Part shown: one piece after another, positions 11,573-19,081 of the stretch
How positions within the stretch are numbered: position 1 is the first letter of the stretch
How the letters are laid out: the number at the start of each line of letters is the position of its first letter
Assembly: GCA_963718235.1 (NCBI GenBank)
Contig: CAVQYR010000002.1
Coordinates: 64,001-128,000 of the forward strand
Direction: 5' to 3'
Length of the DNA: 64,000 nt
Source of the DNA: an uncultured Actinomycetota bacterium
GTDB taxonomy: Bacteria > Actinomycetota > Actinomycetes > JAHEKZ01
Notes under the pieces: generated by a model
Database searches by the model: none
What the model was told of the DNA's origin: nothing
What the model saw: only the letters and a program-made list of their open reading frames with translations
Program-made: the position numbers and the translations under genes

Positions 11573-11923
11573 TCACGAAGGCAGGGAGATGACCGGCCGG
11601 ACCTCGACCCCCTCACCAGGGAGCACTCGGGCCAACGCCAGCGCGGCGTCGAGGTCGGCGCACTCGACCACGTAGTAGCCGCCCAGGGCCTCCTTGGTCT
11701 CGGCGAAGGGGCCGTCGGTGACGATCGGTCCTGAGTCCCCATGTCGGATAGAGGTGGCCGTCGATGAGGCCTCCAGGGGTGCTCCCTCGAGGACCTTGGC
11801 CCCGGAGCTGACGACCTGCTCCTGCCAGGCGTTGTGGGCCTTCAGCATCACGGCCCAGTCCTCGTCGGTCGCCTCGGCCAGGCGGGACTCGTCTCCGTAG
11901 ATCAAGAACATGTAGCTGGGCAT
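11573..11923 (-). CDS. YciI/DGPF-family protein
   Basis: VTDGPFAETKEALGGYYVVEC...VEVRPV signature. Confidence 0.93.
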   Translation of the reverse strand: MPSYMFLIYGDESRLAEATDEDWAVMLKAHNAWQEQVVSSGAKVLEGAPLEASSTATSIRHGDSGPIVTDGPFAETKEALGGYYVVECADLDAALALARVLPGEGVEVRPVISLPS

Positions 11924-11982
11924 GGCGTTCCTCTCACTCTGTGTCTCTGTGTGTCTCTGTGTATGGCATCTGACACGTGGAC

Positions 11983-12020: not shown

Positions 12021-13226
12021 TCAGCTCAGCAGATCCTCTCCGATCCAGCCCCCTGGACGACAGCCCCCGGGCAGCGCGAAGACCGCTGACCCGATGGGTG
12101 TCGTCCAGTCGTTGAGGAGGTCGAAGGTGGCCAGGCGACGCTGGATGGGGAGGAACTGCTGCTCGATGCTCGACTGGTAGGCGCAGAAAACCAGCCCCAC
12201 GTCGGAGACCGACGTCGTCCCCGGCGATTCGTCGTAGGAGTAGCTCCTTCGAAGGAAGCGCTCGTGCGCAGTGTGCGCGCGGGCCCGGCGTGTGTGCGCG
12301 AAAGCCGGAATGACCGGCAGACCGTCGGCACCCACGGCGGCGAGGTCCACCGGTGTCTGCTCCTCGCCTCCGGTCAGGGGCGCACCGTCGCTGAGTCGGC
12401 GTCCGATCACCTGCTCGCGCGACGAGCGATCGACCTTGTCCCAGCCGTCGAGGTCCATCGAGATCCGCCGCACGACCAGCGTCGTGCCTCCGTGGAACCA
12501 CGGGAGCTCCTCATCGGACCAGACGATCGGGGCGAACTCCGGCGAGCCGGGGGCCGGGTTGACCGTCCCGTCCACCTGACCCATCAGGTTGCGGGGGGTC
12601 GACGCGGGGGAGGTGACACCGCGCGCGTCTCGGAAGCCGCGTTGGACCCAGCGAACGGTGGTGAAGGCGCGGGCGTCCTTCAGCAGCATCCGGGTCGCGT
12701 GCGCGACGGAAGTCGGGTCGTCGCCGCCCACGTGGACCAGGAGGTCCCCGTCGCTCCAGTGCGGCTGCAGGCGGTCGATGGGCAGGGGAGGCAGCTCGGT
12801 GAGCCCCTCTGGGCGCTGGTCCCGCAGGCCCAGCCGTTCGAAGAACCCAGGCCCGAACCCGAAGGTGACGGTCAGGTTCGCCGGCCGGAGGGCGAGCTCG
12901 ACCTCGGGGTCGGCCAGCGCGGGCGCTCCCGACGTCAGTCGCGCGGCGTCGTCGGTCCAAAGCCGCATCAGGCGCCCAGCGGCCTCACGATCGACGCCGG
13001 GTCGGAGGTCGACGGCGACGAACGTAGCCAGGGCCTGCGCTGGGGTCTCGACGCCTGCCTGGTGCTCCCCGTGGAACGGCAGCGTGTCGTCCCCCCAGGT
13101 GGGTTGCTCGGGAGGAGGACTGTGCTCGTGGACCGCGGCGTAGGTCGCGGCTCCCGCCAGGGAGGCGCCGCCGACGAAGGCGGCACCTCCCCGAAGGAAG
13201 TCCCGACGGCTCGAGGTCGAGGGCAT
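12021..13226 (-). CDS. Tat-exported DyP-type heme peroxidase
   Basis: SRRDFL Tat signal, FHGEHQAGV, GQVDGTVNP (GxxDG), proximal His in AHTRRA, FLRRSYSY. Confidence 0.92.
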   Translation of the reverse strand: MPSTSSRRDFLRGGAAFVGGASLAGAATYAAVHEHSPPPEQPTWGDDTLPFHGEHQAGVETPAQALATFVAVDLRPGVDREAAGRLMRLWTDDAARLTSGAPALADPEVELALRPANLTVTFGFGPGFFERLGLRDQRPEGLTELPPLPIDRLQPHWSDGDLLVHVGGDDPTSVAHATRMLLKDARAFTTVRWVQRGFRDARGVTSPASTPRNLMGQVDGTVNPAPGSPEFAPIVWSDEELPWFHGGTTLVVRRISMDLDGWDKVDRSSREQVIGRRLSDGAPLTGGEEQTPVDLAAVGADGLPVIPAFAHTRRARAHTAHERFLRRSYSYDESPGTTSVSDVGLVFCAYQSSIEQQFLPIQRRLATFDLLNDWTTPIGSAVFALPGGCRPGGWIGEDLLS

Positions 13227-13232
13227 CGTCGG

Positions 13233-13754
13233 TCAGCCCATCGAGTCGCCACCGGAGTAGTCCTCGTCCGCCCCCGAGAACTCCTTGGCAACCGCGTCGA
13301 CGTCCAGGGTCGACCCGTCGTCGAAGGTCAAGGTGAGCGAGACGACGTCCCCCGGCTGGATCGGTTCGGCGACGTCCATGAGCATGATGTGGTCACCGCC
13401 GGGCTCCAGAGTGGCCGTGCCGTCGGCCGGAAGGGGTATGCCGCCCTCCTTGGGCTGCATCACCATCTCCCCGTTCTTCATGGCCATCTCGTGCAGCTCG
13501 ACCATGGACGACGCAGGGGTGCTCGCCGACACGAGGACGAGGTCGGAGTCCGACGTGTTGGTCAGGGTGACGAATGCCGCAGTCATTCCGGAGTCGACGG
13601 CCTTGACCCAGGGGTCTTCCGCGGTGACGGTCACCGCGTTGGTGGGGGCTGCCGCTGGGTCGTCGTCGCCACACGCAGCGAGGGGTCCGACCGTCAGGGC
13701 GACGACCGAGGCAATCAGTGCGGGGCGTAGCCACCGCAGGCGAAGCAGGGACAT
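13233..13754 (-). CDS. PCu(A)C-family copper chaperone lipoprotein
   Basis: Lipobox LAAC; ELHEM...MVMQ...LEPGGDHIMLM copper-ligand pattern. Confidence 0.92.
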   Translation of the reverse strand: MSLLRLRWLRPALIASVVALTVGPLAACGDDDPAAAPTNAVTVTAEDPWVKAVDSGMTAAFVTLTNTSDSDLVLVSASTPASSMVELHEMAMKNGEMVMQPKEGGIPLPADGTATLEPGGDHIMLMDVAEPIQPGDVVSLTLTFDDGSTLDVDAVAKEFSGADEDYSGGDSMG

Positions 13755-13829
13755 GAGATCTCCTCAAGACAAGAGACGCTGCGGCGGTCTGACCGCGCAA
13801 CGAGGGAACGCACCGACGGTGCGGGTGGG

Positions 13830-14426
13830 CTAGGTCGACGCGAGGTGAGGAGGGGCTCGCGGACCGCCGCTGGCGCGGCAGAAGGAACGCAGGGTCGGCA
13901 CCGAACCCGCGACGGCAGGTCCGCCGGTGCTCGTCAGTCGGGCGAAGGGGACGAGCAGCCCGACCAGCACCCGCCGAGCCATGAACCACAGCCACAGCAG
14001 GAGGTTCTCTCCGCGCCTCAGCAGGGCGATCGACAGCGCGAGCGCCGCCAGGTGGGCCAGCAGCATCGGCTGGCTCACGCCCATGGAGTGGCCGAACAGC
14101 GGGGCTCCGCCACCTGCGGCAAGGGTGTTCGCCGCGTGGTGCCCCACGCCGGGCTGTGCGGAGCCGGCATGCGGACCGTGCCCCAGCCACAAGGTGCCGT
14201 GCACGAGCAGCGCGATACCAGCGAGGGCGAAGGCCAGCCGTCCGGTCGTCCAGGTCTTGGCCGACGCCGTCACACAGAGGGCGGCGACCAGGGCCAGCGT
14301 CACCAGCGCAACAGGGCCAGCGTCGAGGGTGCCGCCGCCGGCGAGGTGACCGAGGACCGGCAGTCCGACACCCACGGCGGCCACGACCACGCCGCGTGTT
14401 CGGCGCATCGCCTCCACCTGTCGCAC
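13830..14426 (-). CDS. Multi-TM His-containing membrane protein with C-terminal RAPP motif (putative arrest leader)
   Basis: Hydrophobic helices carrying LGHLAGGG, LVHGTL and MLLAHLAA; His-rich loop; ends GGPRAPPHLAST. Confidence 0.75.
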   Translation of the reverse strand: MRQVEAMRRTRGVVVAAVGVGLPVLGHLAGGGTLDAGPVALVTLALVAALCVTASAKTWTTGRLAFALAGIALLVHGTLWLGHGPHAGSAQPGVGHHAANTLAAGGGAPLFGHSMGVSQPMLLAHLAALALSIALLRRGENLLLWLWFMARRVLVGLLVPFARLTSTGGPAVAGSVPTLRSFCRASGGPRAPPHLAST

Positions 14427-14459: not shown

Positions 14460-15227
14460 TCAGAGCCCCTCTTGGGAGTACACCGCCATGGAGTCGCGAA
14501 GGAACTCAGCCAGCCGGGGATGGACGTCGTCGTAGCGGGCTCGGAAGTCGGGGTGGTCGACATAGAGCTGCCCCAGCCCGGCATAGCGCTCCGCGTCCGG
14601 GGTCCAGAACCTGGCGACGACCGTGTAGTGCTCGGTGACGACCGCCTGGACGGCTGGATCGTCGGGAGTCGCGCCCTGCTCGATCAGCTCGACGAGGCGG
14701 TCGTCGATCGAGGCGAAGGCACTCTGCGCTTCGGCGTAGTCGCGCTGCTCCCAGCCGACGGTGCTCGCCCTGGACTGGGCCATCGGCTCGCTCACGTCGT
14801 CGCCGAAGCGGTCGACCAGCTCCTGCTCGTAGGCGGCCTGGCGCTGTTGGTCGAAGCCGGCAAACAGCTCGTCGGTGGACATGGTCTCCCCGTTCTCCCA
14901 GGACTCGATGGTGGTGTCGACGGTGGCCAGCAGCGCCTGGAGCTCCCGCCCACGTCGGAGAAGGTCGACCCGGTGCCGGCGCAGGGCGTCGAGCGGGTCG
15001 CAGTCGTCGTCGACGATCGCCTTGATCTCGTCGAGACCCAGGCCGAGCTCGCGCAGCAGCAGGATCCGCTGGAGGCGGGCCAGCTCCCGCTCGCTGTAGA
15101 ACCGGTAGCCGTTGCGTCCCACGTGGGCCGGCCGAAGGAGGCCAATCGCGTCGTAGTGGCGAAGCGTCCGACTGCTCACCCCGGATGCCCGAGCGACCTC
15201 GGTGATCGCCAGCAGCTCGTCGTCCAT
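14460..15227 (-). CDS. MerR-family regulator with TipAS-like C-terminal domain
   Basis: ITEVARASGVSSRTLRHYDAIGLL..NGYRFY HTH; YAGLGQLYVDHPDFRARYD TipAS-like; start set at ATG 15227. Confidence 0.9.
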   Translation of the reverse strand: MDDELLAITEVARASGVSSRTLRHYDAIGLLRPAHVGRNGYRFYSERELARLQRILLLRELGLGLDEIKAIVDDDCDPLDALRRHRVDLLRRGRELQALLATVDTTIESWENGETMSTDELFAGFDQQRQAAYEQELVDRFGDDVSEPMAQSRASTVGWEQRDYAEAQSAFASIDDRLVELIEQGATPDDPAVQAVVTEHYTVVARFWTPDAERYAGLGQLYVDHPDFRARYDDVHPRLAEFLRDSMAVYSQEGL

Positions 15228-15234
15228 GGAAGCC

Positions 15235-15265
15235 ACGCTAGGCGTTGACGCCGCGTCAACGTCCA
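15235..15265 (-). promoter_or_regulatory. MerR-type promoter with 19-bp spacer and palindromic operator
   Basis: Minus strand TGGACG-N19-TAGCGT-N7-ATG; perfect inverted repeat CGTTGACGC-C-GCGTCAACG at 15243-15261. Confidence 0.85.
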
Positions 15266-15307
15266 CCTGCCTCCGGGTCATTGCCGCACCCCTTCGAGGA
15301 CCGGACA

Positions 15308-18300
15308 ATGCGGGTCATGGCCGACTCAGGGGGACGGGTGCTCCCGTATGTGCCCCGACTGACCCTGGAGTGGCTGGCCCAGCGGCCGCAGGACGCGCAC
15401 ACGCTCATCGCGGGCACCGTCATCTTCGCCGACCTCTCCGGCTTCACCGCCATGGCCGAGCGTCTGGCCTCCCTGGGTCGCGAGGGGGCCGAACGGCTGA
15501 CCGAGGTCATCGACGAGACCTTCGCCACCCTGCTGGCCGGGGTCTACGCCGAGGGCGGGAGGCTGCTCGCCTTCGGCGGCGACGCCATGGTGCTGATGTT
15601 CGTCGGAGACGACCACGTGTCACGCGGCTGCCGTGCCGCAGTGGGGCTGCGGCGCACCCTGCGGCAGGTCGGGCGTCACGAGACTCCCCGTGGCGCCGTC
15701 CAGCTGCGGATCTCGATCGGTGTCCACACGGGGGAGTTCGCGGCGTTTCTCGTCGGCTCGTCGCACCGACAGCTGCTCCTGGCCGGGCCCGGGATCACCT
15801 CGGTGGTCGACGCCGAGCATGCTGCACATACGGGCGAGATCGTGGTGACCGAGGGCACGGCCAGTGCTCTGCCCTCGCGCTGCGTCGGCCCGGTGGTGGC
15901 GGGTGGGTACCGCTTGTCGCGCGCGCCGAGCGGTGCCGGCGCCTTCGCCATCGACCAGGCACCCCCGGGCGCCGCCGACCTGGCTGGCCGGGCGGTCCCC
16001 ACCGCCATCCGTGACCATCTGCTCGACCCTTCGACCACGGCGGAGCACCGGGTCGTCACGATGGCGTTCCTCCAGGTGCGCGGGACCGACACAGCCGTGG
16101 CCAAGGGGTTGCCCGAGGCCGCTGACGCGTTGGCTGCCGTCGTCACCTGCGTGCAGGAGGCGTGCGAGCGGTTCGGGGTGACCTTTCTCGGTGCCGATGT
16201 CGACCATGACGCCGTCAAGGTCCTCCTTGTCGCCGGTGCACCGGTGTCCCGCGGTGACGACGAGGAGCGAATGCTTCTCGCGCTCCGCGACGTCGTGGAA
16301 GCCAGACTGCCCCTACCCGTACGGGCTGGAGTCCATCGAGGCAACGTGTTCGTCGGAGACGTCGGGCCGTCATACCGCCGCACGTTCACAGCGATGGGCG
16401 ACACCGTCAACCTTGCCGCTCGGCTGATGGCTCGCGCCGACGACGGCACGATCCTGGCCACTCACGATGTGGTCGACCGGTCACGCGTCACATTCGCCCT
16501 GACCGACGTGGAGCCGTTCGTGGCCAAGGGCAAGCGTGCGTTGGTGCATGCGGTGAGCGTGGGCGAGGCGACCGAAGCAGTGGCGGCTTCGTCACGTGCA
16601 CCGGTGCTCGTCGGGCGTGACGCCGAGCTCGTAACGCTGCTCTCGGCATGGGAGGAGGCGCGAGCCGGGAGGGGACGCGCCGTCGAGATCGTGGGAGAAC
16701 CGGGCATCGGCAAGACCGCCCTGCTCGACGTCCTGGTCGACCGAGCCTCCGCCGCGGCCTGGCTGCGCACCAGAGGCGACCTGTACTCGGCGTCGTCACC
16801 GTACCGAGCGGCCCGCGAGCTGCTGCTCACGGCTCTCGGCGTGGACTCGCGGTCGCTCGACCCGACGGAGCTGATGGCCGGAGTCGCACAGCTGGTCTCG
16901 CGAAGCGCGCCGGCTCTGACCGCGTGGCTGCCCCTGTTGGCTGATGTCGTCGGCGGGTCGGTCGAGACCACTCCCGAGGTGGCGGCGCTGTCCGACGAAC
17001 GACGACGGGACCGGCTGCACGAGGTCGTCACGGAGGTGGTCGACGCCGCGATTCCTGGTGCTGCGCTGCTCACCGTCGAGGACACCCACTGGCTGGACGA
17101 CGCGTCGTCAGCGCTGCTGGCCCACCTCGTGCAGGCGTCCCGGGTCCGTCCGTGGTTGGTCGTCACGACGCGCCGCGACCTCGTCACCGGATACGTGCAG
17201 GCCACGGGAGCCGGTGAGGTCGTCATCCCGCGCCCACTGGACGACGCCGCAGCGGCGCTCCTGGCCACCGGTGACGACGACGCAGTGCCGCTTCCTCCGG
17301 TGGTGATGGCCCGGCTGACCCGTCAGGCCGCAGGCAACCCGCTGTTCCTGCGTGAGCTGGTCGCGGCTGCGCGGGACCACGCCGACGTCGATGAGCTGCC
17401 CGACACCCTCGACGCGCTGCTGACCGTTCGCCTGGACCGACTCGGTGCCCGCGACCGTGACCTGGTACGGCGGGCGGCCGTGCTCGGCCCGCGGTTTCGT
17501 GAAGTCGACCTGGGGTTGGTGGCCGGCGAGCAGACGACGGTCCCGGGCGCATCGTCGTGGGGACGGCTGGGGGAGTTCGTGGTCCGGGTCGATGACGAGC
17601 ACCTCGCCTTCACACACGCGCTGCTGCGCGACGCCGCCTACGCGGCTCTGCCTTTCCGGCTCAGGCGAGAGCTGCACGGCCGGGTCGCCGACGCCTGGTC
17701 GACCACCTCTGAGCGGGGCGATGACGCGGTGCTGTCGTACCACTTCTTCGCGGCCGGGCGGTGGGCCGAAGCGTGGAACACGGCACGCGTTGCTGGCGAG
17801 GCCGCGGTCGCCGCCTACGCACCTGTGGAGGCTGCCGCGCTCCTCGACCGTGCACTTCAGGCGGCTCGGCTCCTGCACGGCGAGGTGGCCTGGGCCGAAC
17901 GGGCGGAGGTGTCTCTGCTGCTCGCCAGGGCTCACGCGGTGAGCGGGTCGTTCGACGCCGCGGAGCGTGCCTATGCGGGGGTGACTGCGGGCAGCGACGA
18001 CCCCCTGCTGAAGGCACGGTCGCTGGTGCAACAGGCGTGGCTGGCCGAGCGCCAGAGCCGTCTGCGGCTGGGTGTTCGCCGGGCCAGGGCCGCGCAGCGC
18101 CTGCTCACGACCGTCGCCGACGATTCTTCGGGACGACGTGAGTGCCTCGCAGCGGCGCTGACCGCCGAGGGCATGTGCTGGGAGGTGATGGGTCGACACG
18201 ACCGGGCCGCCGATGCGCTTCGGCAGGCAGTTGACGAGGCCGAGGCAGTGGGCGACCAGCGCACGGTCGCGCACGCAGGGTCGATCCTCGACGGCTGCCT

Positions 18301-19081
18301 GGCCATGACCGGCGACCGGACCGCGGGCCGCCACCTCGAGCGCTCACTGGAGATCTACCAGGAGCTGGGGGACCTCGCGGGACAGGCGACCTGCCTGACC
18401 AACCTCGGCGCGCTGGCGTACCTGCGTGGTGACTGGGAGCTGGCTGTCTCCAGCTACCGAGAAGGGCAGCTGGTCCAGCTGCGCTCGGGCGACGTGACCA
18501 GCGCAGCACTCGGCGCGGTGAACATCGGAGAGGTGCGAAGCGACCAGGGGCACTGGGAGCAGGCGATGGTCTCCTTGGACGAGGCGTTGGCGGTGTGGCG
18601 CTCGACCGGCCATCGGCATGGGGTCGCCTACGCGCAGGGCCTGCGCGGTCGGCTGCTGGCTCGCAGGGGCGCCTTCGATGCGGGGTGGGACGAGCTCGCG
18701 GCCGCCTCAGCGCTGCATCGAGAAGTCGGTGCTGAGGGCGACGCCGCCCAGGTGTCACTGTGGCTCGCCGAGTGCCATCTGCTGGCCGGTGAACCCGAGA
18801 CGGCGTTGCGGCTGCTCGATGACGGAGCCGACGACGAGTCGGTGGCGGCTGCTCGGCTGCGTGCGACCGCCACGTGGCTGGCCGGGCCGGTGACCGGCGG
18901 CGTCGCAGCGTTGCACGCGGCCTACCGACGGTCGGTCGATGAGGCGGAGGCGTACGAAAGGGTCTGCCTCGCCGAGGTCCTGGCTGCCGCCGATTCCGGC
19001 GCCGAGGCCCTTGCCCACGAGGTCGCGCCGTTGCGCACCGGTCTGGGCATCGTTCGGCTCGCCGTCCTGCCGGGCCGCTGA
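15308..19081 (+). CDS. Tandem class III nucleotide cyclase + STAND P-loop ATPase + TPR protein
   Basis: IFADLSGFT and FGGDA (domain 1), MGDTVNLAARL (domain 2), LVGRDAEL, Walker A GEPGIGKT, VEDTHWLD, AAGNPLFL, C-terminal TPRs. Start 15308 or 15317. Confidence 0.9.
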   Translation: MRVMADSGGRVLPYVPRLTLEWLAQRPQDAHTLIAGTVIFADLSGFTAMAERLASLGREGAERLTEVIDETFATLLAGVYAEGGRLLAFGGDAMVLMFVGDDHVSRGCRAAVGLRRTLRQVGRHETPRGAVQLRISIGVHTGEFAAFLVGSSHRQLLLAGPGITSVVDAEHAAHTGEIVVTEGTASALPSRCVGPVVAGGYRLSRAPSGAGAFAIDQAPPGAADLAGRAVPTAIRDHLLDPSTTAEHRVVTMAFLQVRGTDTAVAKGLPEAADALAAVVTCVQEACERFGVTFLGADVDHDAVKVLLVAGAPVSRGDDEERMLLALRDVVEARLPLPVRAGVHRGNVFVGDVGPSYRRTFTAMGDTVNLAARLMARADDGTILATHDVVDRSRVTFALTDVEPFVAKGKRALVHAVSVGEATEAVAASSRAPVLVGRDAELVTLLSAWEEARAGRGRAVEIVGEPGIGKTALLDVLVDRASAAAWLRTRGDLYSASSPYRAARELLLTALGVDSRSLDPTELMAGVAQLVSRSAPALTAWLPLLADVVGGSVETTPEVAALSDERRRDRLHEVVTEVVDAAIPGAALLTVEDTHWLDDASSALLAHLVQASRVRPWLVVTTRRDLVTGYVQATGAGEVVIPRPLDDAAAALLATGDDDAVPLPPVVMARLTRQAAGNPLFLRELVAAARDHADVDELPDTLDALLTVRLDRLGARDRDLVRRAAVLGPRFREVDLGLVAGEQTTVPGASSWGRLGEFVVRVDDEHLAFTHALLRDAAYAALPFRLRRELHGRVADAWSTTSERGDDAVLSYHFFAAGRWAEAWNTARVAGEAAVAAYAPVEAAALLDRALQAARLLHGEVAWAERAEVSLLLARAHAVSGSFDAAERAYAGVTAGSDDPLLKARSLVQQAWLAERQSRLRLGVRRARAAQRLLTTVADDSSGRRECLAAALTAEGMCWEVMGRHDRAADALRQAVDEAEAVGDQRTVAHAGSILDGCLAMTGDRTAGRHLERSLEIYQELGDLAGQATCLTNLGALAYLRGDWELAVSSYREGQLVQLRSGDVTSAALGAVNIGEVRSDQGHWEQAMVSLDEALAVWRSTGHRHGVAYAQGLRGRLLARRGAFDAGWDELAAASALHREVGAEGDAAQVSLWLAECHLLAGEPETALRLLDDGADDESVAAARLRATATWLAGPVTGGVAALHAAYRRSVDEAEAYERVCLAEVLAAADSGAEALAHEVAPLRTGLGIVRLAVLPGR

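Follow-up and report, generated by a model that had tools for sequence, protein, structure and literature searches.

The window analysed here is a 64,000-nucleotide stretch of DNA from an uncultured Actinomycetota bacterium (contig CAVQYR010000002.1, positions 64,001 to 128,000; all coordinates below count from the first nucleotide of the stretch). Its minus strand carries four co-directional genes, which encode a MerR/TipAS-type regulator, a small membrane protein, a PCu(A)C copper chaperone (PCuAC) and a DyP-type peroxidase (Table 1). The subject of this work is the small membrane protein, called the leader below. The C-terminal end of the leader open reading frame (ORF) reads GGPRAPPHLAST followed by the stop codon, and places the tetrapeptide R-A-P-P five residues before the stop of a protein of 192-198 amino acids (aa). 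The start codon is uncertain (GTG at 14426 or ATG at 14408), because a near-identical (99%) database protein, P0001, is 192 aa long and begins at the ATG; residue numbers refer to the 192-aa form. The DyP gene starts 6 nt past the PCuAC stop codon. The PCu(A)C product is, judging from its LAAC lipobox, probably a lipoprotein, and the lipobox together with the twin-arginine signal of the DyP protein indicates that both products work outside the cytoplasm.

The original prediction, made from the nucleotide sequence alone, had described this locus as a candidate ribosome-stalling copper switch, in which a RAPP-tailed membrane leader heads a PCuAC-DyP operon and the codons of its tail can sequester the Shine-Dalgarno (SD) sequence of the PCuAC gene. 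The ORF, its predicted helices and the gene order agreed with such a leader, and the RAPP codons, the CTCCTCA and TGAGGAG elements, the 75-nt spacer and both spacer hairpins were all found at the positions given for them. We propose, with a probability of about 0.7, that the leader is a regulatory arrest leader of the type represented by SLIV_18480 of Streptomyces lividans, and that it heads the PCuAC-DyP copper genes.

The leader protein matched no Pfam-A family at E <= 0.1 and no NCBIfam model, and Foldseek returned no match in the PDB at E <= 0.001. Membership in DUF2946 was rejected on the lack of a Pfam match at this threshold. The sequence contains no CxxC or CxxxC motif, and an alignment of 82 family sequences has no invariant Cys. 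AlphaFold2 run on this alignment (predicted local distance difference test score 81, predicted template-modelling score 0.68) gave four helices comprising residues 2-23, 32-48, 55-75 and 113-152, and had low confidence in a His-rich loop (76-112) and in the tail (153-192), which appeared unstructured. His residues are located in helices 1, 3 and 4, which bears out the earlier description of His-bearing hydrophobic segments and a His-rich loop. In the 82-sequence alignment R5, H21, H119, R184, P186 and P187 are invariant and H70 and M115 almost so. Across 155 family proteins H21 was present in 152, H70 in 154, M115 in 153, H119 in all 155 and an acidic residue at position 134 (Glu or Asp) in 153. 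Basic residues are found at the N-terminus, in the stretch joining helices 2 and 3, and past helix 4, but none in the 76-112 loop. This distribution of charges fits a topology with both termini inside (N-in/C-in) and the His-rich loop outside, which would place the three His and the Met at those ends of helices 1, 3 and 4 that lie in the outer leaflet. The distance between E134 and the Pro predicted to occupy the peptidyl (P) site of the ribosome was 49-63 residues (median 55, n = 151); the sequence of this linker is poorly conserved.

Eight relatives with 35-99% identity were found by a word-indexed search, and every one of them ends in R(A/G)PP. In a 50%-identity protein library the profile of these relatives matched 1,863 clusters at E <= 1e-3, of which 340 reached E <= 1e-10; it also matched 68 of the 401 genomes sampled from the same class (59 of 314 among the good-quality genomes). 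With the single leader protein as query, matches were obtained in 5 of 61 genomes of nearer relatives. Scans with a narrower alignment revealed no relatives in metagenome contigs and one relative (L054) in genome contigs.

The expectation that homologues keep an R(A/G)PP tail was confirmed: R-[AG]-P-P lies at most 40 aa from the C-terminus in 151 of the 155 family proteins (136 RGPP, 15 RAPP), and the distance from motif to stop is 5 residues in 72 proteins, 6 in 32 and 4 in 12. When genomic loci were inspected, 27 of 30, and then 20 of 21 further ones, had the motif in frame at the C-terminus. Tail motif and stop distance are kept down to about 25% identity. Across the loci the motif is written with five of the Arg codons, four Gly codons and every one of the four Pro codons; since there is synonymous variation at every motif codon, selection acts on the peptide. 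In one of the four exceptions, L015 (G253:C18:38923-42339), the body stops early, and an SRRGPPALAAR tail with its stop codon follows in a different frame some 100 nt further downstream. Either a frameshift or an error of assembly accounts for the broken tail (the genome is 68% complete).

To describe the genomic neighbourhood, 54 unique loci were oriented, the downstream start was picked by SD score and the gene was classed by phmmer against Pfam-checked seeds. The first downstream gene encodes YcnI/DUF1775 in 20 loci, CopC in 13, PCuAC in 8, Sco in 2 and an extracytoplasmic function (ECF) sigma factor in 3, with 8 genes unidentified. Copper-trafficking genes (YcnI, CopC, PCuAC, Sco) are thus directly downstream in 43 of the 54 loci, and the copper-gene neighbours anticipated from the window locus are common in the family. 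The gene order in presumed Streptomyces-like genomes is leader-YcnI-Sco-...-CopCD-DyP (L039). The source genome itself has a second, diverged leader copy outside the window (L034, G000:C2:225052-225555). Its tail reads DRRRGPP and continues for 17 residues, the likely CopC start overlaps the end of the leader by 13 nt, and a CopD-CtaG fusion gene comes next. Taken as a whole, the family probably represents a four-transmembrane (TM), His3/Met subfamily of the RAPP/RGPP arrest class, heading copper-trafficking operons in high-GC actinobacteria.

In the three loci L037, L041 and L073 the His3/Met body and the RGPP tail are found upstream of ECF sigma-factor genes, not copper genes. They resemble in this respect SLIV_33595 and SLIV_33605, four-TM proteins encoded upstream of ECF sigma factors (PMC12992588). 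From these loci the same sensor module seems to feed transcriptional output too.

The class to which we assign the leader was described in 2025 in Streptomyces, and the window gene is a further member of it. According to the available text of that work (Fujiwara et al., EMBO J 2025, PMC12992588), RAPP and RGPP are depleted from proteomes but show enrichment close to the C-terminus in small proteins that are secreted or lie in the membrane, and such proteins are over-represented upstream of genes for YcnI, PCu(A)C, TonB-receptor, PepSY and thioredoxin proteins, Actinomycetota included. All tested S. lividans proteins with a C-terminal RAPP or RGPP, seven in number, arrested translation; the arrest was seen in S. 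lividans and Bacillus subtilis hybrid PURE systems and in vivo, and was abolished by replacing the Arg with Ala (PMC12992588). SLIV_18480 has four TM segments, an AlphaFold3-modelled copper site made of three conserved His and one Met, and Cys residues at positions 40 and 127 (PMC12992588). For the window leader, arrest would follow by analogy with these homologues, for which it was shown in print. Three sequence marks of the arrest-peptide class were found in the leader: R-A/G-P-P (RAPG is also allowed) near the C-terminus of a protein of <300 aa, predicted TM segments and a same-strand downstream gene. Likewise, its family has the four predicted TM helices, the three conserved His and the one conserved Met.

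The family profile matched Streptomyces-like loci of the YcnI and ECF kinds with E values of 2e-8 to 6e-6, and on the strength of this match the leader very probably belongs to the same family as SLIV_18480. In the Streptomyces-like YcnI loci Cys residues occupy positions 38 and 131 (L035, by script) and 40 and 119 (L039, hand count), close to Cys40 and Cys127 reported for SLIV_18480 (PMC12992588). The window leader and SLIV_18480 are alike in being small four-TM proteins with three His and one Met, an R(G/A)PP near the stop and a same-strand metal-related gene downstream, as far as the published description of SLIV_18480 goes. They differ in that the window leader is shorter (192-198 aa versus about 250-300 aa in the Streptomyces-like homologues), has RAPP where RGPP is commoner, lacks the paired Cys and heads a two-gene PCuAC-DyP unit. 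The earlier idea of a multi-pass, His-based leader that is free of CxxC was correct: no DUF2946 match and no CxxC were found, and the helix His residues are conserved. Its novelty has been overtaken by the 2025 paper.

Two copper-responsive leaders offer a further comparison. In CruR of Bordetella pertussis copper relieves arrest at RAPP, which allows Rho termination (PMC9426467), and in CutF of Rhodobacter capsulatus copper-induced stalling melts a stem-loop over the ribosome-binding site of the next gene (bioRxiv 10.1101/2025.02.05.636593), to the extent that these sources were available. Like the window leader as we read it, both are exported or membrane leaders that head a copper operon and have a Pro-rich arrest motif at the C-terminus, RAPP in the case of CruR. 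The window leader differs from them by the absence of DUF2946 and of CxxC/CxxxC, by having four helices instead of a signal peptide and His plus Met as candidate ligands, and by its Gram-positive high-GC lineage. In SecM-secA and MifM-yidC2, too, arrest comes only a few codons ahead of the stop; there, the parked ribosome is proposed to unmask the downstream SD, and pulling force on the nascent chain to relieve the arrest. The arrest predicted for the leader would share the position near the stop, and SD unmasking and pulling force are proposed for it as well; in contrast, SecM and MifM monitor Sec or YidC activity, not metal, and in the window the helix masking the SD is not the dominant predicted fold. 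As to the downstream genes, the Streptomyces sco-ecuc-SLI_4212-dtpA operon, which is needed at low copper, likewise combines a PCuAC-type chaperone (ECuC) and a DyP peroxidase exported by the twin-arginine route in one copper-trafficking operon (PMC4736821). The window operon has no adjoining Sco or CopCD gene, and the available text of PMC4736821 mentions no leader gene.

In the mechanism that we envisage, the nascent chain ending in GGPRAP, attached to tRNA with Pro186 in the P site, and the Pro187-tRNA in the aminoacyl (A) site would fail to form a peptide bond, and the ribosome would stop five codons before the stop codon. The assignment of the two residues to the sites relies on analogy with the ApdA, ApdP and CruR toeprints, which put Pro codons in the P and A sites (PMC12992588). 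At the time of arrest helices 1-4 would already be outside the ribosome and in the membrane, with the linker of 49-63 residues spanning the exit tunnel. PCuAC and DyP would be expressed while the ribosome is parked, since it would either cover CUCCUCA and so release the PCuAC SD, in the manner of SecM and CutF, or keep Rho from loading on the C-rich spacer, in the manner of CruR. Copper bound at the outward-facing His21, His70, Met115 and His119 would close the helix bundle, pull on the nascent chain and relieve the arrest. Following the logic of CruR, relief would switch the copper-acquisition genes down.

Table 1. Genes and sequence elements at the leader locus and in its vicinity.
Feature	Position	Strand	Details
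Leader ORF	13830-14426	-	198 aa (GTG start, 14426) or 192 aa (ATG start, 14408); four-helix His3/Met membrane protein, C-terminal RAPP
R-A-P-P codons CGA GCC CCT CCT	13859-13848	-	Pro186 = 13853-13851, Pro187 = 13850-13848
Candidate anti-SD CUCCUCA (CTCCTCA)	13852-13846	-	+1 to +7 from predicted arrest P site
Spacer between leader and PCuAC	13829-13755	-	75 nt, C-rich (C 39%, G 28%)
Spacer hairpin 1, CGCACC-GTC-GGTGCG	13823-13809	-	present in minimum free energy fold
Spacer hairpin 2, GCGGT-CAG-ACCGC	13801-13778, core 13796-13784	-	present in minimum free energy fold
Local hairpin GUCUCUU/AGGAGAU over PCuAC SD	13777-13758	-	predicted fold, -7.2 kcal/mol
PCuAC SD UGAGGAG (TGAGGAG)	13766-13760	-	5 nt before ATG (13754-13752)
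PCu(A)C copper chaperone	13233-13754	-	Pfam PF04314, E 1e-38; LAAC lipobox
DyP-type peroxidase	12021-13226	-	Pfam Dyp_perox_N + Dyp_perox_C, TIGR01413; twin-arginine signal SRRDFLR
MerR/TipAS-type regulator	14460-15308	-	ends about 35-50 nt upstream of leader, same strand
YCII-domain gene	11573-11923	-	follows DyP gene

The proposal that the stall-site codons act as an anti-SD started from the observation that CUCCUCA is the perfect 7-nt complement of UGAGGAG. The CCT CCT codons involved are indeed odd for this high-GC genome, as had been remarked: in the long ORFs of the source genome CCT makes up only 5.5% of Pro codons. The 18 nt counted from the P site were the best SD partner of 56 in-frame windows of the ORF (duplex -12.0 kcal/mol). 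Among synonymous recodings the pairing of stall codons and SD ranked at 0.062 (6 codons, locus usage) or 0.007 (10 codons, genome usage). A search for sequencing runs that contain the locus listed no RNA data set, and in four DNA metagenome runs only contigs of near-identical strains were found. One of these (X5) keeps the SD, as well as the covered part of the stall site; in another (X7) the outermost T of TGAGGAG is changed and the contig ends before the stall codons.

The same pairing was examined across the family in 45 loci, after nine of the 54 (L019, L021, L026, L032, L034, L057, L059, L068, L069) had been dropped for uncertain or overlapping downstream starts. Against synonymous nulls 7 loci ranked <= 0.05 and 13 ranked <= 0.1 (Fisher combined 5e-4), and in the positional test 10 loci ranked <= 0.05. 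Partition function calculations assigned at least half of the SD pairing mass to positions P to +17 in 12 of the 45 loci, compared with 3.7 loci on average, and never more than 7, in 20 replicates of synonymous recoding. Strong pairing occurs upstream of PCuAC (L002, L024/L031), Sco (L062/L074), CopC (L004, L046) and YcnI (L051, L056, L070) genes and also in L061/L071; the duplexes all fall within +0 to +17 relative to the P site, and in every case but L004 they begin at +3 to +7. The suggestion that stall codons sequester the downstream SD does hold in a weaker form: their recruitment as anti-SD is a recurrent, not universal, theme of the family, and it does not involve conserved CCT CCT codons.

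Several results weigh against our reading of the locus, most of them against its anti-SD part. The homology to SLIV_18480 is indirect, established through Streptomyces-like loci and not through SLIV_18480 itself, and for this protein the binding and sensing of copper are inferred, as is the direction in which it would regulate the genes. In the minimum free energy (MFE) fold of 13740-13870 CUCCUCA is in a hairpin loop and the SD in its local hairpin, and the overall z-score of the fold is only -1.77. Forcing the 7-bp long-range helix costs 2.8-4.1 kcal/mol over the MFE in four sequence contexts, and the ensemble probability of the CUCCUCA:UGAGGAG helix is at most 1.4%. The probability that the SD is unpaired was 0.18-0.19 whether the RNA was free, masked by the footprint of a stalled ribosome or occupied by a terminating one. 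The family-wide ensemble analysis of pairing was also negative for the window locus. CCT CCT is not conserved in other loci: among the 27 loci in which the motif codons were read, of 30 examined, it was seen at the motif only in the window. In the YcnI loci as a group the stall codons do not pair with the SD any better than expected by chance, and the family p-values overstate the effect because L024/L031, L061/L071 and L062/L074 are close relatives.

For the anti-SD switch at the window this means that the exact complementarity and the first rank among 56 windows stood, whereas the predicted long-range helix was not favoured and masking the stalled footprint did not open the SD. The notion that anti-SD and SD are drawn together by the two spacer hairpins was rejected, since the predicted folds leave CTCCTCA and the SD apart and give the SD a hairpin of its own. 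The folding method handles nested pairs, and a pseudoknot between the loop and the SD lies outside its model. All considered, we give SD unmasking as the output at the window locus somewhat less than an even chance.

The other route of output, a Rho switch like that of CruR, seems rather unlikely to us as the sole mechanism; the rest of the probability goes to both routes together or to something else. Here the ribosome parked at RAPP would shield the C-rich spacer and transcription would run into PCuAC-DyP; after release the ribosome would terminate, Rho would load on the 75-nt spacer and transcription would end. The complementarity of CUCCUCA to the SD would then be incidental, or part of a pyrimidine-rich Rho utilization (rut) region. 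Besides the precedent of CruR (PMC9426467), the failure of stalling to open the window SD in the fold model speaks for such a switch, as do the spacers, which are long and C-rich not only in the window but across the family (45 loci: lengths of 21-239 nt with a median of 103 nt; C 41% and G 30% on average; more C than G in 43). In agreement with the original prediction, no independent promoter was detected in the window spacer by a sigma-70-like scan; no terminator-like site and no Rfam family were found either, these scans being weak for actinobacteria. However, two stable GC hairpins fill much of the window spacer, so that Rho would find little unstructured RNA there; some spacers of the family measure only 21-45 nt; and a rut site leaves the excess of stall-codon/SD complementarity over synonymous nulls unexplained.

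In a separate observation, the loci L007, L008, L017, L019, L020, L024, L025 and L029 were found to contain CCUCC-like pyrimidine tracts within the first 10-40 nt past the leader stop. These tracts could be further anti-SD elements or rut sites.

An improbable alternative to a regulatory role is that the pause serves the biogenesis of the leader itself, insertion of the fourth helix or metal loading, and that the mature protein is a copper-trafficking subunit. The leader differs from most arrest leaders in that its body, a four-helix bundle with a likely metal site, is well conserved; this suggests a function for the mature protein itself, and the constrained length of the linker would suit biogenesis as well. 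Yet the motif is always a few codons from the stop with a same-strand gene just downstream, which is the known architecture of regulatory arrest, and in about a quarter of the loci the stall-site codons pair with the downstream SD. Biogenesis and regulation are, moreover, not mutually exclusive. We regard it as very improbable that R(A/G)PP at the C-terminus is a motif of the ordinary kind that the mature protein uses, for example in partner binding or sorting, without significant arrest here: the sequence N-terminal to the motif does matter for arrest (PMC12992588), but RAPP and RGPP tolerate varied upstream contexts, all seven S. lividans proteins tested arrested, the motifs are depleted from proteomes (PMC12992588) and the tail of the leader is unstructured, with low AlphaFold2 confidence.

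Returning to regulatory arrest, a tentative picture of the whole family, which we hold to be possible but well short of likely, is that of a co-translational transmembrane copper sensor. Closure of the metal-bridged His3/Met bundle, at a fixed 49-63 residues from the peptidyl-transferase centre, would exert the pull that releases the arrest. In about a quarter of the lineages, the window included, the codons under the parked ribosome would double as the anti-SD of the next gene, so that a single stretch of peptide and codons would serve both as brake and as switch, and the others would use Rho or spacer elements.

Two features of the window lie beside the leader operon. Directly upstream of the YCII-domain gene the minus strand has a CA/GA-rich, low-GC repeat (11924-11965, cacagagacacacagagacacagagtgagagg), which is unusual at the GC content of this genome. 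On the plus strand an ORF of 1,278 aa (15245-19081) is divergent from the MerR gene.

The window locus mainly confirms a published concept. The new points are the constrained linker of 49-63 residues and the recurrent complementarity between stall codons and SD in a subset of loci. Linker length and stall-codon/SD pairing provide handles on the release of arrest and on its readout, questions that the available text of PMC12992588 leaves open. The family is large (68 of 401 genomes, 1,863 clusters at 50% identity) and lacks a curated Pfam or NCBIfam model; annotation would benefit if it were named. If the proposed mechanism is true, many actinobacteria control copper acquisition post-transcriptionally, by a membrane protein that senses the metal while it is still bound to the ribosome.

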